DNA from: Escherichia coli
Lineage (GTDB): Bacteria; Pseudomonadota; Gammaproteobacteria; Enterobacterales; Enterobacteriaceae
NCBI RefSeq assembly: GCF_030013595.1
Contig: NZ_CP122768.1
Direction: 5' to 3' (one strand)
Length of the DNA: 64,000 nucleotides
In this document: positions 1,898-10,722 of the stretch, in pieces
How the letters are laid out: every line of letters begins with the position of its first letter
How positions within the stretch are numbered: the first letter of the stretch is position 1
The notes under the pieces: generated by a model
The model's input: only the letters and a program-made list of their open reading frames with translations
Databases searched by the model: none
What the model was told of the DNA's origin: nothing
Position numbers and translations under genes: made by a program

Positions 1898-4800
1898 ATG
1901 GGTAAAGGCAGCAGTAAGGGGCATACCCCGCGCGAAGCGAAGGACAACCTGAAATCCACGCAGCTGCTGAGTGTGATTGATGCCATCAGCGAAGGGCCGG
2001 TTGAAGGTCCGGTGGATGGATTAAAAAGCGTGCTGCTGAACAGTACGCCAGTGCTGGACAGTGAGGGGAATACCAACATCTCCGGCGTCACGGTGGTGTT
2101 CCGGGCCGGTGAGCAGGAGCAGACACCGCCGGAGGGATTTGAATCCTCCGGCTCCGAGACGGTGCTGGGTACGGAAGTGAAATACGACACGCCGATCACC
2201 CGGACCATCACGTCGGCAAACATTGACCGACTGCGTTTTACCTTCGGCGTGCAGGCACTGGTGGAAACCACCTCAAAGGGGGACAGGAATCCGTCGGAAG
2301 TCCGCCTGCTGGTTCAGATACAGCGTAACGGTGGCTGGGTGACGGAAAAAGACATCACCATTAAGGGCAAAACCACCTCGCAGTATCTGGCCTCGGTGGT
2401 GGTGGGTAACCTGCCGCCGCGCCCGTTCACTATACGGATGCGCAGGATGACGCCGGACAGCACCACAGACCAGCTGCAGAACAAAACGCTCTGGTCGTCA
2501 TACACCGAAATCATCGATGTGAAACAGTGCTACCCGAACACGGCACTGGTCGGCGTGCAGGTGGACTCGGAGCAGTTCGGCAGCCAGCAGGTGAGCCGTA
2601 ATTATCATCTGCGCGGGCGTATTCTGCAGGTGCCGTCGAACTATAACCCGCAGACGCGGCAATACAGCGGTATCTGGGACGGAACGTTTAAGCCAGCATA
2701 CAGCAACAACATGGCCTGGTGTCTGTGGGATATGCTGACCCATCCACGCTACGGCATGGGGAAACGTCTTGGTGCGGCGGATGTGGACAAATGGGCGCTG
2801 TATGTCATCGGCCAGTACTGCGACCAGTCGGTGCCGGACGGCTTTGGCGGCACGGAGCCGCGCATCGCCTGTAATGCGTACCTGACCACACAGCGCAAGG
2901 CCTGGGATGTGCTCAGTGATTTCTGCTCGGCGATGCGCTGTATGCCGGTATGGAACGGGCAGACGCTGACGTTCGTGCAGGACCGACCGTCGGATAAGGT
3001 GTGGACCTATAACCGCAGTAATGTGGTGATGCCGGATGATGGCGCACCATTCCGCTACAGCTTCAGCGCCCTGAAAGACCGCCATAATGCCGTTGAGGTG
3101 AACTGGATTGACCCGGATAACGGCCAGGAGACGGCGACAGAGCTTGTGGAGGACTCGCAGGCCATTGCCCGTTACGGTCGTAACGTCACGAAGATGGATG
3201 CGTTTGGCTGTACCAGCCGGGGGCAGGCGCACCGCGCCGGGCTGTGGCTGATTAAAACAGAACTGCTGGAAACGCAGACCGTGGACTTCAGCGTGGGTGC
3301 CGAAGGGCTTCGCCATGTACCGGGCGATGTCATTGAAATCTGCGATGATGACTATGCCGGTATCAGCACCGGCGGGCGCGTGCTGGCGGTGAACAGCCAG
3401 ACCCGGACGCTGACGCTCGACCGTGAAATCACGCTGCCATCCTCCGGCACCACGCTGATAAGCCTGGTTGACGGAAGTGGCAATCCGGTCAGCGTGGAGG
3501 TCCAGTCCGTCACCGACGGCGTGAAGGTGAAAGTGAGCCGGGTTCCTGACGGCGTTGCCGAGTACAGCGTGTGGGGGCTGAAGCTGCCGACGCTGCGCCA
3601 GCGCCTGTTCCGCTGTGTGAGTATCCGTGAGAACGACGACGGTACGTATGCCATCACTGCAGTGCAGCATGTACCGGAGAAAGAAGCCATCGTGGATAAC
3701 GGGGCGCACTTTGACGGTAACCAGAGCGGCACGGTGAATGGTGTCACGCCGCCAGCAGTGCAGCATCTGACCGCAGAAGTCACCGCAGACAGCGGGGAAT
3801 ATCGGGTGCTGGCCCGCTGGGACACGCCGAAGGTGGTGAAGGGCGTGAGCTTCCTGCTTCGCCTGACCGTGGCAGCGGATGACGGCAGTGAGCGGCTGGT
3901 CAGCACGGCCCGGACGACGGAAACCACTTACCGCTTCACACAACTGGCTCTGGGGAACTACAGGCTGACAGTCCGGGCAGTAAATGCGTGGGGGCAGCAG
4001 GGCGATCCGGCGTCGGTATCGTTCCGGATTGCCGCACCGGCAGCGCCGTCGCGGATTGAGCTGACGCCGGGCTATTTTCAGATAACCGCCACGCCGCATC
4101 TTGCGGTTTATGATCCGACGGTACAGTTTGAGTTCTGGTTCTCGGAAAAGCGGATTGCGGATATCAGGCAGGTTGAAACCACAGCACGCTATCTTGGCAC
4201 GGCGCTGTACTGGATAGCCGCCAGTATCAATATCAAACCGGGCCATAATTATTATTTTTACGTTCGCAGTGTGAACACCGTTGGCAAATCGGCATTCGTG
4301 GAGGCTGTTGGTCAGCCGAGTGATGACGCATCCGGCTATCTGGATTTTTTCAAAGGCGAGATAGGGAAAACCCATCTGGCTCAGGAGCTGTGGACGCAGA
4401 TTGATAACGGTCAGCTTGCGCCTGACCTGGCTGAAATCAGGACGTCCATTACGGATGTCAGCAATGAAATCACACAGACCGTCAATAAGAAACTGGAAGA
4501 CCAGAGTGCAGCAATTCAGCAGATACAGCAGGTTCAGGTTGATACAAGTAATAACCTGAACAGCATGTGGGCTGTGAAGTTGCAGCAGATGCAGGACGGA
4601 CGCCTTTATATTGCGGGTATCGGTGCCGGTATTGAGAACACCCCCGACGGCATGCAGAGTCAGGTGCTGCTGGCGGCAGACAGGATTGCGATGATTAATC
4701 CTGCAAATGGCAACACAAAACCGATGTTTGTTGGTCAGGGTGATCAGATATTCATGAATGAAGTGTTCCTGAAATATCTGACGGCTCCCACCATTACCAG

Positions 4801-5377
4801 CGGCGGTAATCCTCCTGCATTTTCCCTGACACCGGACGGAAAGCTGACCGCTAAAAATGCAGATATCAGTGGCAGTGTGAATGCGAACGCCGGGACGCTC
4901 AACAACGTTACGATAAATGAAAACTGTCAGATTAAAGGGAAACTGTCAGCCAACCAGATTGAAGGCGATATTGTCAAAACAGTGGGTAAGGCTTTCCCGC
5001 GGGACTCCCGGGCACCGGAGCGGTGGCCATCAGGGACCATTACCGTCAGGATTTATGACGATCAGCCGTTTGACCGGCAGATTGTTATTCCGGCGGTGGC
5101 ATTCAGCGGTGCTAAACATGAGAGAGAGCATACTGATATTTACTCCTCATGCCGCCTGATAGTGAAGAAAAATGGTGCTGAAATTTATAACCGTACCGCG
5201 CTGGATAATACGCTGATTTACAGTGGTGTTATTGATATGCCAGCTGGTCACGGCCACATGACGCTGGAGTTTTCGGTGTCAGCATGGCTGGTAAATGACT
5301 GGTATCCCACAGCAAGTATCAGCGATTTGCTGGTTGTGGTGATGAAGAAAGCCACCGCAGGCATCAGTATCAGCTGA
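1898..5377 (+). CDS. Phage tail tip / host specificity protein J
   Basis: 1159-aa ORF directly after I; size, position and fibronectin-III-like central region match lambda gpJ. Confidence 0.9.
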
Positions 5378-5395
5378 ATTTTATAACCCATATAC

Positions 5396-5420
5396 GGGCG
5401 CCAGAAATGGCGCCTTTTTT
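5396..5420 (+). terminator. Rho-independent terminator after J
   Basis: GGCGCC-AGAAAT-GGCGCC hairpin followed by TTTTTT. Confidence 0.6.
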
Positions 5421-5444
5421 ATTGCAGAAAAGCGAGAGGTAATT

Positions 5445-6044
5445 ATGCGTAAAGTTTGTGCAGCCATTTTGTCCACAGCCATCTGTCTGGCCGTATCCGG
5501 TGCGCCTGCATGGGCGTCTGAGCAGCAGGCCACACTGAGCGCAGGGTATCTTCATGCCCGTACGAACGCTCCCGGCAGCGATAATCTGAACGGGATTAAC
5601 GTGAAATACCGTTATGAGTTTACGGACACGCTGGGGCTGATTACGTCATTCAGTTATGCCAACGCTGAAGATGAGCAAAAAACGCATTACAGCGATACCC
5701 GCTGGCATGAAGATTCCGTGCGTAACCGCTGGTTCAGCGTAATGGCGGGGCCGTCTGTGCGCGTGAATGAATGGTTCAGCGTGTATGCGATGGCGGGTGT
5801 GGCTTACAGCCGTGTGTCGACTTTCTTCGGGGATTATCTCCGCGTAACTGACAACAAGGGGAAAACGCACGATGTGCTGACCGGAAGTGATGACGGTCGC
5901 CACAGCAACACGTCTCTGGCGTGGGGGGCTGGCGTGCAGTTTAACCCGACCGAATCCGTGGCCATTGATATTGCTTATGAAGGCTCCGGCAGTGGTGACT
6001 GGCGCACTGACGGTTTCATCGTGGGTGTCGGTTATAAATTCTGA
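5445..6044 (+). CDS. lom: Lom outer-membrane protein (Ail/Lom/OmpX beta-barrel family), prophage moron
   Basis: 199 aa with signal peptide and C-terminal ...GVGYKF beta-barrel ending; sits between J and stf as in lambda. Confidence 0.9.
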
Positions 6045-6070
6045 TTAGCCAGGTAACACAGTGTTATGAC

Positions 6071-6098
6071 AGCCCGTCGGTTCAGGCGGGCTTTTTTG
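6071..6098 (+). terminator. Rho-independent terminator after lom
   Basis: GC stem (gcccg/cgggc) followed by TTTTTT just before stf. Confidence 0.55.
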
Positions 6099-6108
6099 TG
6101 GGGTGAAT

Positions 6109-9100
6109 ATGGCAGTAAAGATTTCAGGTGTACTGAAAGACGGCACAGGAAAACCGGTACAGAACTGCACAATCCAGCTGAAAGCAAAACGTAACAGCAC
6201 CACGGTGGTGGTGAACACGCTGGCCTCAGAAAATCCGGATGAAGCCGGGCGTTACAGCATGGACGTTGAGTACGGTCAGTACAGCGTTATTCTGTTGGTG
6301 GAAGGATTCCCGCCGTCACATGCCGGGACCATCACCGTGTATGAAGACTCCCGACCCGGTACGCTGAATGATTTTCTCGGTGCCATGACGGAGGATGATG
6401 CCCGGCCAGAGGCACTGCGCCGTTTTGAGCTGATGGTGGAAGAGGTGGCGCGTAACGCGTCCGCGGTGGCACAGAACACGGCAGCCGCGAAGAAGTCAGC
6501 CGGCGATGCCGGCACATCAGCCCGTGAGGCGGCAACCCATGCGACTGATGCTGCAGGCTCAGCACGCGCAGCCAGCACGTCAGCCGGACAGGCCGCGTCG
6601 TCGGCTCAGTCAGCGTCTTCCAGCGCAGGAACGGCATCAACAAAGGCCAGTGAAGCATCGAAAAGTGCTGCTGCTGCAGAGTCCTCAAAAAGCGCGGCAG
6701 CTACCAGTGCCAGTGCCGCGAAAACGTCAGAAACGAATGCCGCAGCGTCACAACAATCAGCAGCCACTTCTGCATCCACCGCGACCACGAAAGCGTCAGA
6801 AGCTGCCACCTCAGCCCGGGATGCGGCGGCCTCAAAAGAGGCAGCGAAATCATCAGAAACGAACGCATCCTCGAGCGCCAGTAGCGCAACTTCCTCGGCA
6901 ACGGCGGCAGGAAATTCCGCGAAGGCGGCAAAAACGTCCGAGACGAACGCTAAGTCTTCTGAGACGGCAGCGGGACAGAGCGCCTCAGCTGCGGCAGGCT
7001 CAAAAACAGCGGCTGCATCATCTGCCAGCGCCGCGTCAACAAGTGCCGGGCAGGCCTCAGCCAGTGCCACCGCCGCCGGAAAATCGGCAGAAAGCGCCGC
7101 ATCATCCGCTTCAACAGCCACAACGAAGGCTGGCGAAGCCACTGAACAGGCCAGCGCAGCAGCGAGTTCTGCTTCCGCAGCGAAGACATCCGAAACGAAC
7201 GCGAAAGCGTCGGAAACCAGCGCAGAATCCTCAAAAACGGCTGCCGCATCGTCAGCCAGTTCGGCGGCGTCATCGGCATCATCGGCGTCTGCTTCAAAAG
7301 ATGAGGCGACCAGACAGGCGTCAGCAGCGAAGGGCAGCGCCACGACAGCATCCACGAAGGCGACAGAGGCAGCTGGTAGTGCGACAGCGGCAGCTCAGAG
7401 CAAAAGTACGTCGGAATCTGCAGCAACGCGTGCCGAGACAGCAGCAAAACGGGCAGAGGATATTGCATCTGCCGTGGCGCTTGAGGATGCGAGCACGACG
7501 AAAAAGGGGATAGTACAGCTCAGCAGTGCGACCAACAGTACGTCTGAAACGCTGGCGGCAACGCCAAAGGCAGTAAAATCAGCCTATGACAATGCAGAGA
7601 AACGTCTGCAGAAAGACCAGAACGGCGCTGATATACCCGATAAGGGACGCTTCCTGAACAACATTAACGCGGTCAGTAAAACAGACTTTGCTGATAAGCG
7701 TGGTATGCGTTATGTGCGGGTTAACGCTCCTGCAGGTGCAACATCTGGAAAATATTACCCTGTTGTTGTTATGCGTTCTGCTGGCTCAGTAAGCGAACTG
7801 GCATCAAGGGTCATTATCACCACGGCAACGCGAACCGCAGGCGATCCGATGAATAACTGCGAGTTTAACGGATTTGTTATGCCTGGTGGCTGGACTGACA
7901 GGGGGCGTTATGCTTATGGAATGTTCTGGCAATATCAAAACAATGAACGAGCCATCCACTCAATAATGATGAGTAATAAGGGCGATGATTTGCGCTCTGT
8001 GTTCTATGTTGATGGCGCTGCTTTCCCTGTTTTTGCGTTTATCGAAGATGGCCTGTCAATATCCGCACCTGGTGCTGATCTCGTTGTTAATGATACGACC
8101 TATAAGTTTGGGGCAACAAATCCAGCGACTGAATGTATCGCGGCGGACGTTATCCTTGATTTTAAGAGTGGGCGTGGTTTTTATGAGTCTCATTCGTTAA
8201 TCGTTAACGATAATTTGTCGTGCAAAAAACTTTTTGCCACAGACGAAATTGTAGCGCGTGGTGGTAATCAGATTCGAATGATAGGTGGGGAGTATGGTGC
8301 ATTATGGCGTAATGATGGCGCTAAAACTTACCTGCTGCTTACCAATCAAGGTGATGTTTATGGTGGCTGGAATACATTAAGACCGTTTGCTATTGATAAC
8401 GCAACCGGCGAACTGGTTATTGGAACCAAACTGTCCGCAAGTCTGAACGGTAATGCATTAACAGCAACAAAGCTGCAAACGCCAAGACGGGTTTCTGGTG
8501 TTGAGTTTGATGGTTCCAGAGATATTACTTTAACCGCCGCGCATGTGGCTGCTTTTGCCAGAAGGGCAACGGATACATATGCCGATGCGGATGGTGGCGT
8601 TCCCTGGAATGCCGAATCAGGTGCTTACAATGTCACCCGCTCTGGCGACAGCTATATTCTGGTTAACTTCTATACCGGAGTCGGAAGTTGCCGGACCCTG
8701 CAGATGAAGGCGCATTACAGAAATGGTGGTCTGTTCTACCGTTCTTCAAGAGACGGTTATGGTTTTGAGGAAGACTGGGCAGAAGTTTATACCTCGAAAA
8801 ATCTTCCACCAGAAAGCTACCCAGTCGGCGCACCAATCCCGTGGCCATCAGATACCGTTCCGTCTGGTTATGCCCTGATGCAGGGGCAGACTTTTGACAA
8901 ATCTGCTTACCCGAAACTTGCAGCCGCTTATCCGTCAGGCGTGATCCCTGATATGCGTGGCTGGACGATTAAGGGCAAACCTGCCAGTGGTCGGGCCGTA
9001 TTGTCTCAGGAACAGGACGGCATTAAATCGCATACCCACAGCGCCAGCGCATCCAGTACGGATTTGGGGACGAAAACCACATCGTCGTTTGATTACGGCA

Positions 9101-9459
9101 CTAAATCCACGAATAACACCGGGGCGCATACCCATAGTGTTAGCGGTACGGCTGCTTCAGCCGGTGCACATACCCATTCGATGACATTTGTTTCAGGTGG
9201 TTCCAGTGGTGCTCCGGGAAGTGGAGCATCTGATTATTCTAAATACAGTGTTAACACTTCTTCTGCAGGCGCTCATACGCACTCTGTATCGGGTACTGCT
9301 GCAAGCGCAGGTGCACACGCACATACTGTGGGTATTGGTGCTCATACGCACTCCGTTGCGATTGGTTCACATGGACACACCATCACCGTTAACGCTGCTG
9401 GTAACGCGGAAAACACCGTCAAAAACATCGCATTTAACTATATTGTGAGGCTTGCATAA
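6109..9459 (+). CDS. stf: Side tail fibre protein Stf (long form)
   Basis: ORF track starts at a GTG (6103); likely ATG at 6109 giving [17 protein letters not shown]... Contains a long Ala/Ser/Thr-rich repeat region and a C-terminal His-rich GAHTHS repeat block. Confidence 0.9.
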
Positions 9460-10034
9460 TGGCATTCAGAATGAGTGAACAACCACGGACCATAAAAATT
9501 TATAATCTGCTGGCCGGAACTAATGAATTTATTGGTGAAGGTGATGCATATATTCCGCCTCATACAGGTCTGCCAGCAAACAGTACCGATATTGCACCGC
9601 CAGATATTCCGGCTGGCTTCGTGGCTGTTTTCAACAGTGATGAGTCATCGTGGCATCTCGTTGAAGATCATCGGGGTAAAATGGTTTATGACGTGGCTTC
9701 CGGCGACGCGTTATTTATTTCTGAACTCGGTCCGTTACCGGAAAATGTTACCTGGTTATCGCCGGAAGGGGAGTTTCAGAAGTGGAACGGTACAGTCTGG
9801 GTGAAGGATACGGAAGCAGAAAAACTGTTCCGGATCCGGGAGGCGGAAGAAACAAAAAACAGCCTGATGCAGGTAGCCAGTGAGCATATAGCGCCACTTC
9901 AGGATGCTGTAGATCTGGAAATCGCAACGGAGGAAGAAACCTCATTGCTGGAAGCCTGGAAAAAGTATCGGGTGTTGCTGAACCGTGTTGATACATCAAC
10001 TGCACAGGATATTGAATGGCCAGCACTGCCGTAG
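9459..10034 (+). CDS. tfa: Tail fibre assembly protein Tfa
   Basis: 191 aa, start overlaps stf stop (TAATG); Tfa-family chaperone immediately after stf. Confidence 0.9.
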
Positions 10035-10131
10035 GGTAAAACATATAAATTCTATAATTAGATGTATCTTTCCATTTACGGCAAGGAAGGGGGCTTGGAA
10101 GACGTAAAGCATCTCACACCGAGATTATTTT

Positions 10132-10722
10132 TTATATGTCAGGTGTCTGAAGTTTTGCTTTGGCTCTTAAAATGGTTTGCCGCGAGGTTTTGAATTCCCG
10201 GGCAATGGCACTTATACTTACACCTGACTTAATTCGTTCGAATACCACCTGTTTCTGTTCTTCATTTAACACAGGTGGTCGACCAAAACGTTTCCCTGCG
10301 CCGCGGGCTCTTACTATCCCGGAATGAGTGCGTTCAAGTAAAAGGTCTCGTTCAAATTCAGCGACTGCTGAAATTACGTGCATCATCATTTTTCCTGTTG
10401 GACTGGTCAGGTCAATGCCCCCCAATGCTAAGCAATGCACTCTGATACCTGTTTCGGTCAGTTGTTCCACTGTTTTCCTGATATCCATTGCATTACAACC
10501 AAGGCGATCCAGTTTTGTCACAATCAATTGATCACCACATTTCAGGCGAGCAAGCAACCGGTTAAAACCAGGACGCTCACTGGTTGCTGCTGAGCCGCTA
10601 ATGTGTTCTTCGATTATTTGCTGAGGTTTGATTTTAAAACCTGCACTTTCGATTTCCCGGCGTTGATTTTCGGTGGTCTGATCCAGCGTTGATATCCGAC
10701 AGTAAGCAAAAATTCGAGACAT
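10132..10722 (-). CDS. pin: Pin-type serine DNA invertase (Hin/Gin/Cin family)
   Basis: 196 aa [15 protein letters not shown]... with resolvase catalytic Ser region and C-terminal HTH; convergent with tfa, as pinQ/pinR in K-12 prophages. Confidence 0.9.

Follow-up and report, generated by a model that had tools for sequence, protein, structure and literature searches.

Heptad repeats very probably forming a coiled-coil rod in the Ala/Ser/Thr-rich part of an stfR-type side tail fibre gene of an Escherichia coli prophage

We analysed a 64,000-nt stretch of Escherichia coli DNA (the window) and found that the Ala/Ser/Thr-rich kilobase of its side tail fibre gene very probably encodes the heptad-repeat coiled-coil rod of a lambda-type side tail fibre. 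The rod, a PCoil domain, was mapped to 6400..7488 on the plus strand (aa 98-460, about 51-52 uninterrupted heptads) by heptad stacking, autocorrelation, register and a predicted AF2 helix. The PCoil domain, its heptad pattern, its trimeric coiled coil and its length variation in sevens have already been published, and the feature is an ordinary one.

Results

The gene lies among the distal tail genes of a lambdoid prophage, which occupy positions 1898-10722 of the window according to ORFs and Pfam matches. J (1898-5377, from the ORF) is followed by lom (5445-6044, from the ORF and Pfam Ail_Lom) and by stf (6109..9459, plus strand), a 1116-aa side tail fibre gene of the stfR type as judged by its ORF, Pfam matches, homology and flanking genes. 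Downstream of stf are tfa, coding for a Caudo_TAP assembly chaperone (9459-10034; ORF and Pfam PF02413), and, on the minus strand, a gene for a pin-type invertase (10132-10722; ORF/Pfam). The order J-lom-stf-tfa typical of lambda-type Stf is present in the window, and the RefSeq annotation of a near-identical locus gives the same order. We conclude that the prophage is lambdoid and that its side tail fibre gene is of the stfR type, in the arrangement J-lom-stf-tfa-pin. Its DNA is 99.6% identical to the annotated stf of E. coli WP8-S18-CRE-02, a copy found inside a prophage adjoining ydfK/ydfJ. Matches to some part of stf were found in 5175 of 5426 complete E. coli genomes.

RefSeq starts stf at an ATG (6109) and the ORF lister at a GTG (6103). 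Positions of Pfam and PDB matches are numbered from the GTG, and subtracting 2 converts them to the ATG numbering used for everything else. Pfam matches in Stf (PF08400, PF21446, PF07484 and PF03335) give an architecture of PfN (PF08400), a gp34-type trimerisation domain, a collar domain and fibre repeats. In GTG numbering, PF08400 (PfN, phage_tail_N) covers aa 3-136 (E 9e-72), while aa 3-96 match residues 1-94 of the lambda Stf collar chain in PDB 9e7m (E 2e-51), aa 444-523 match Mu fibre S (5yvq) and aa 904-1118 match the T4 gp37 tip (2xgf). Between the first and second of these parts, aa 137-443 gave no sequence match in either Pfam or PDB. The 9e7m match, together with AF2 strands at residues 3-77, places the PfN/collar domain, a beta sandwich, at aa 1-94 (6109..6390, plus strand); this domain docks the fibre on the tail tip (PMC12617516). 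At its distal end the rod is closed by a conserved 24-residue motif (7507..7578, plus strand), recognised by alignment and by the regex that set the distal anchor for our length measurements, and spanned by the Mu fibre S match.

The original prediction of an Ala/Ser/Thr-rich stretch of about 1 kb in the side tail fibre was borne out: the stretch is real and covers nt ~6400-7488, and these three residues make up 65-85% of Stf between about aa 120 and 460 (nt ~6460-7490). Autocorrelation of the protein gave identities of 0.37-0.42 at lags 7, 14 and so on up to 56, against about 0.2 at other lags. The signal at multiples of 7 reached z = 8-10 relative to residue shuffles up to lag 56, and no signal was seen at lags that are not multiples of 7. 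The consensus heptad is (S/T)-x-A-x-(T/S)-S-A, or equivalently S-A-x-x-A-x-x. When heptads were stacked, two core-spaced columns held Ala in 46 of 50 and 34 of 49 cases, and the column preceding one of them held Ser in 37 of 49. SAxxAxx occurs 24 times in the region in a single phase and A..A..S 25 times in one phase throughout. By contrast, the 18-residue repeat ASxSAxxAxTSAxxAxxS that had been proposed for this stretch has no literal occurrence; it amounts to 2.5 heptads of SAxxAxx. The heptads begin at about aa 98-104, right after the PfN domain, which is the position of a PCoil, and the register is constant over aa 111-459 in the window Stf and in three other E. coli Stf proteins. No higher-order repeat, for example of 15 heptads, was detected. 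The best protein self-matches are scattered over many different multiples of 7 (154, 84, 70, 238 and others), so there is no single super-period.

Next, we compared rod lengths among relatives, taking as the measure the distance from the N-domain anchor LNDFL to the distal GIVQLSS motif. Twenty-seven representatives of 50%-identity clusters have both anchors, and in 23 of them the distance equals 3 modulo 7 (59, 66, 157, 164, 178, 269, 276 and 381). The same holds for 49 of 49 IMG/VR loci (269, 276, 374, 381 and 486). The four exceptions among the representatives have distances of 128 (three proteins) and 173 (one protein); over all sequences the classes that break the heptad rule are 128, 173, 378 and 384, seven sequences altogether, and the 128 class results from a deletion shifting the register by one residue. 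Coil indels among the 120 closest database relatives, a sample biased towards full-length matches, comprised one 28-aa deletion, two 3-aa events and two single-residue events. Rod length thus varies more than eightfold in the family (59-486 residues between anchors), nearly always by whole heptads, and the window Stf falls in the commonest long class.

The comparison with lambda illustrates such a step. Lambda Stf is about 87-90% identical to the window protein and differs by a single gap of 105 residues (15 heptads), which is in frame and in register in both protein and DNA alignments. The corresponding 315-nt block (7017..7331, plus strand) is present in the window and in K-12 StfR and absent from lambda Stf (orf-401). 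Lambda is therefore the shorter by 15 heptads, and the K-12 StfR coil has the same length as that of the window. Over evolutionary time, rod length very probably changes as whole heptads are lost, doubled or swapped, with register-breaking variants being rare and presumably selected against. A speculative reading of low probability, milder than that of an overlapping gene considered below, is that whole-heptad switching, such as the recurrent 15-heptad steps (276 to 381 to 486), adaptively tunes the reach of the fibre to the thickness of the host surface. The recurrence of 105-residue steps, for which no super-period accounts, may be coincidental.

The length variation raises the question of whether the DNA itself is a tandem repeat, that is, a slippage- or recombination-prone contingency tract which drives length change and creates the extra ORFs. 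Internal DNA periodicity is indeed present at 21 nt, with 46% identity against a baseline of 36% (z = 7.8 relative to codon shuffles), and a self-comparison without such periodicity had been named as the outcome that would count against a repetitive region. However, permuting synonymous codons while keeping the protein fixed reproduces the periodicity (z of about 0 at lags 42-126 and 2.3 at lag 21), and it is therefore a mere mirror of the protein heptads. TRF run on the region reported no array, its sole report being a 22-nt trinucleotide-like run, and DNA self-blastn gave a single marginal match of 26 nt. The longest exact direct repeat, 11 nt, is matched by a non-repeat control stretch of stf and does not exceed the synonymous-codon-permuted null. 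A repeat search returned nothing beyond short in-phase segments of 60-88% similarity. Head-to-tail copies of high nucleotide identity, as in a tandem-repeat or contingency locus, were not found. The DNA is thus not meaningfully repetitive in any sense useful for slippage, none of its repeats is of a length that would make it an obvious substrate for recombination, and its repetitiveness had been overstated.

Recombination joints were then considered, as they provide the remaining arguments for such a tract. One relative (locus L067, anchor distance 486) carries a 315-nt (15-heptad) segment duplicated in tandem; the two copies, at lag 315, share 96.6% identity, as seen by self-blast and by comparison with the window. 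Its joint maps to two in-phase window segments, 69% similar and 315 nt apart. The left segment (6676..6720, plus strand; repeat family D1) was found by the repeat search and the L067 comparison; the right segment (6991..7035, plus strand), which was found in the same ways and in the lambda alignment, overlaps the left border of the lambda gap as well. A second locus, L006, is a hybrid that is of window type up to stf nt 839 and carries the PCoil variant of locus L007 from nt 813. The joint lies inside the region, in a motif of about 27 nt (AAKTSETNA) common to both PCoil variants. Comparison of L006 with L007 places the crossover point at the motif copy at 6925..6950 (plus strand; repeat family D3); the other three copies of this family are at 6715-6740, 6841-6866 and 7177-7202. 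These two recombinants have internal joints, and crossovers inside the region therefore do happen; at least some of the length changes and exchanges are very probably crossovers that took place at short motifs lying in the same phase.

However, a spread sample of 60 matches in E. coli genomes shows joints mainly at the two ends of the region. Homology ended at stf nt ~350, the border between PfN and PCoil, in 10 matches and at nt ~1460-1487, just past the conserved closing motif, in 24; only 4 ended inside the region, at nt ~840. In 3540 of 5426 complete E. coli genomes a match extends over 80% or more of the query, which comprised the N domain and the coil; the sampled matches that run through the whole coil are as long as the query. 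According to De Paepe et al. (2014; PMC3945230), lambda and Rac recombine within stf at about 2e-6, and there is no hotspot. Of the earlier suggestion that the region is a hotspot for recombination and length variation, the length variation stands, being extensive (59-486) and quantised; a recombination hotspot in the region is weakly supported and not established. Taken with the open frames described below, which codon shuffles reproduce, these results make a contingency tract very unlikely.

Two long ORFs in other frames, which had been called spurious, exist at exactly the coordinates given for them. One is a 335-aa, Arg/Pro/Gln-rich ORF in the +1 frame (6506..7513, plus strand) and the other a 249-aa, Ala/Asp/Val/Phe-rich antisense ORF (6606..7355, minus strand); both come from the ORF list, and the latter has a counterpart in lambda orf206b and a match to phrog_560. 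Their spurious nature was upheld, but not the proposal that repetitive DNA is their cause. Codon shuffling removes the periodicity yet keeps long open frames: the mean open runs in shuffled sequences were 249 codons (+1) and 241 codons (antisense), compared with 351 and 262 observed. Codon position 2 in the region is 65% C and 3% T, and the long open frames arise because of this C-rich, T-poor codon composition of stf, not because of DNA repetition. The extreme Ala/Ser/Thr codon usage thereby leaves the other frames free of stops and gives rise to two long, meaningless ORFs. The region contains no Tyr codons and few Gln or His codons.

Could either ORF, most plausibly the antisense one at 6606-7355, be a genuine overlapping gene hidden in the coil-coding region? 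The lambda reference record annotates an ORF, orf206b, at the homologous antisense position, and the window ORF matches phrog_560 ("unknown function") over its full length (E 5.8e-123); the +1 ORF has no PHROG match. We compared 41 different natural variants sharing the same coil length: none interrupts the antisense ORF, whereas 11 carry a stop inside the +1 ORF. The openness of the antisense frame nonetheless follows from stf codon composition alone. A stop in this frame would call for a Tyr or Gln/His codon in stf, and the region has almost none of these; the antisense frame also shares wobble positions with stf (GCN reads as GCN, Ala; TCN as GAN; ACN as GTN), so that its apparent conservation comes free. 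Because the wobble positions coincide, an excess of substitutions at third positions does not tell the two frames apart, and a degeneracy-class test was used in its place. Transversion polymorphism was seen at none of 26 sites changing Stf but not the antisense product, at 8 of 33 sites changing the antisense product only, and at 18 of 43 sites silent in both frames. Constraint on the sense frame was significant (p = 4e-5). The difference between 24% for antisense-changing and 42% for fully silent transversions is in the direction expected of a gene, although with p = 0.14 for constraint on the antisense frame; the asymmetry between the two frames gave Fisher p = 0.007. Constraint is thus detectable in the stf frame only. 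As the antisense product is also of low complexity, we regard an overlapping gene as extremely unlikely, and both alternative-frame ORFs are best regarded as artefacts. Neither should be called a gene in annotation, and the antisense ORF has already spread through databases as lambda orf206b and PHROG family 560.

The assignment of the region to the shaft of the side tail fibre agrees with its heptads, its predicted helix and its homology to PCoil and lambda Stf. An AF2 monomer model, built on an alignment of 36 sequences, has a mean pLDDT of 64, with most of the helix at 60-76. It consists of a beta N-domain (strands 3-77), helix at residues 98-282 and 298-456, and small beta elements at the conserved GIVQLSS...AATPKAVK motif. 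At a low-confidence break (283-297) the single chain folds back on itself, which is probably an artefact of modelling one chain. The alpha-helix of a PCoil is, for the window protein, a prediction by AF2. Several points were counted against a coiled coil: the exact segment is without a structure, aa 137-443 fall in the Pfam/PDB gap, the AF2 confidence is moderate, and the four length classes named above depart from the heptad rule. A core made entirely of Ala and Ser is, moreover, unusual for a coiled coil.

The extreme Ala+Ser+Thr content, the lack of a Pfam domain over the segment and the moderate AF2 confidence would also suit an intrinsically disordered, mucin-like linker in which the repeats merely reflect low complexity. 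Residue shuffles of the same composition, however, carry no lag-7 signal, while the real sequence gives z = 8-10 and stays in one register for about 350 residues; relatives differ by indels in steps of seven, and the AF2 model is helical. In addition, in vitro work on the homologous PCoil showed a helical trimer (PMC3368898), and the lambda segment is a visible rod (PMC12617516). Disorder, to which we give hardly any credence, is largely refuted already. Another fibrous fold (triple beta-helix, beta-spiral or collagen-like helix) is practically negligible as a reading: beta-spirals and triple beta-helices are the fold of many phage fibres, distal parts of the same Stf are gp34/gp37-like and beta-structured, and some family members have collagen repeats after the coil, but the segment has a period of 7 with 3-4 spacing of small core residues, lacks Gly-X-Y repeats and is predicted to be helical, and the homologous domain is alpha-helical by CD (PMC3368898).

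Discussion

We propose that Stf forms a parallel alpha-helical coiled coil of three chains, which their N-terminal PfN/collar domains anchor on the tail tip; core positions a and d are nearly all Ala, with adjacent Ser. With about 51 heptads, the thin rod would measure roughly 53 nm, exceeding that of lambda by 15 heptads (about 15 nm), and it may act as a spacer between the tail and the T4-gp37-like distal part that binds the receptor. The parallel trimeric state and the spacer role are inferred from homologues in the literature. Alanine-zipper trimers such as E. coli Lpp-56, and T4 fibritin, likewise combine heptads, small residues in a trimer core and a rod-like spacer. Compared with these, the Stf core is nearly exclusively Ala, has Ser next to it and runs for about 50 heptads without stutters.

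The Ala/Ser-rich region between PfN and the next domain was named PCoil by Ghosh et al. (2012, PLoS One; PMC3368898) in EPclA and EPclB. They described its A-x-x-A/S-x-x-S periodicity and its lengths differing by multiples of seven, and obtained an alpha-helical CD spectrum for EPclA, a trimer by SEC-MALLS for its PfN-PCoil part and a rod in rotary-shadowing EM. As in the window, the PCoil of EPclA and EPclB stands straight after PfN (PF08400), has the same Ala/Ser-rich heptad and differs in length by multiples of seven. The window coil is longer, at about 360 aa compared with about 90-140, and has more Thr and less Glu. After the coil, the window has the GIVQLSS motif and gp34/gp37-like distal domains, whereas EPclA and EPclB have collagen. 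Collagen-bearing members also occur in the family sampled here.

A second close counterpart comes from the cryo-EM study of Ur-lambda by Wang et al. (2025, Sci Adv; PMC12617516), which resolved the Stf collar (residues 1-94, PDB 9e7m), the linkers and the trimeric bundle. The bundle covers the proximal ~120 residues of lambda Stf, and residues 102-393 were modelled as a proximal coiled coil. That segment is orthologous to the window rod, about 87-90% identical where aligned and flanked by the same collar domain and closing motif. The window rod differs in its 15 extra heptads (7017-7331) and in a distal half of StfR type rather than lambda type. A third is the Rac StfR of K-12 (1120 aa), which shares coil length, register (aa 111-459) and the stf-tfa-pin layout with the window and whose stfR is 96-97% identical to the window stf at the DNA level. 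It is set apart by scattered substitutions and by a length difference of four residues outside the coil; a further difference is that the near-identical genome WP8-S18-CRE-02 has its copy next to ydfJ/ydfK.

For phage engineering, the family offers a natural catalogue of tolerated rod lengths along with short in-phase motifs at which crossovers have taken place in nature. The stf rod region is poorly handled by low-complexity filters and by short-read assemblers. Most close relatives in the databases are entered as partial, and several bear the wrong name "short-chain fatty acid transporter".

Length variants and hybrids of the coil

Among relatives of the side tail fibre (Stf), the longest rod that we observed is encoded by an stf locus from IMGVR_UViG_2660237933_000006 (L067). 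Its anchor distance, counted in residues from the N-domain anchor LNDFL to the GIVQLSS motif, is 486 and is due to a tandem duplication of 315 nucleotides (15 heptads) within the coil, the two copies being 96.6% identical (nucleotides 321-987 of the extracted anchor-to-anchor fragment). This step equals in size the block of 15 heptads that separates the window from lambda Stf, but its position is different.

Changes by whole heptads are not kept to in rare members, namely the Stf relatives P0152, P0146 and P0190 (anchor distance of 128) and P0172 (anchor distance of 173). One of the exceptions is a deletion that moves the register by one residue.

A different kind of variant was found in E. 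coli strain 204 (L006; NZ_CM134209.1, 3501-7280), where stf is annotated as a pseudogene and is cut off after a hybrid coil. Downstream of it lies a separate gene for a fibre protein of 917 amino acids, named "pyocin knob domain-containing S74 family peptidase". The truncated stf with its hybrid coil, followed by this separate fibre gene, suggests a replacement of the distal module with the joint inside the coil.

The distal tip of Stf

Amino acids 904-1118 of Stf (8812-9456, plus strand; counted from GTG 6103) strongly resemble the receptor-binding needle of T4 gp37 (PDB 2xgf, E = 2e-88), and the likeness extends to the His-rich GAHTHS repeats. This gp37-like C-terminal tip is a classic lambda/T4 fibre mosaic.

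Antisense reading frames and annotation of relatives

An antisense ORF lies within the coil-coding region (6606-7355, minus strand) and is matched along its whole length by phrog_560, a PHROG family of unknown function. Its counterpart in the lambda reference genome (NC_001416, 20147-20767, minus strand) is annotated as orf206b. Together, the ORF, orf206b and phrog_560 look like a compositional artefact that has been turned into a database "family". An antisense ORF of 625 amino acids inside gene J (2498-4375, minus strand) is probably another spurious long ORF opposite a real gene.

Of the 120 proteins listed as nearest to Stf, the majority carry the label "partial". NCBI gives several of them the name "short-chain fatty acid transporter, partial", which is clearly wrong as far as the transporter is concerned (proteins cited for these labels are P0011, P0020, P0029 and P0035).

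The region beyond stf and RNA-family matches

The 3' half of tfa contains, within its coding sequence, a match to Rfam IS009 (RF02111; 9802-10000, plus strand, 226 bits). Directly beyond tfa is a Pin-type serine invertase with Resolvase and HTH_7 domains (10132-10722, minus strand); in the tfa-to-pin interval, no cassettes of alternative fibre or tfa genes are obvious. In chromosomal DNA outside the prophage, the Hfq-binding sRNA STnc560 (RF01407) is matched over its full length (20939-21152, plus strand, 280 bits).
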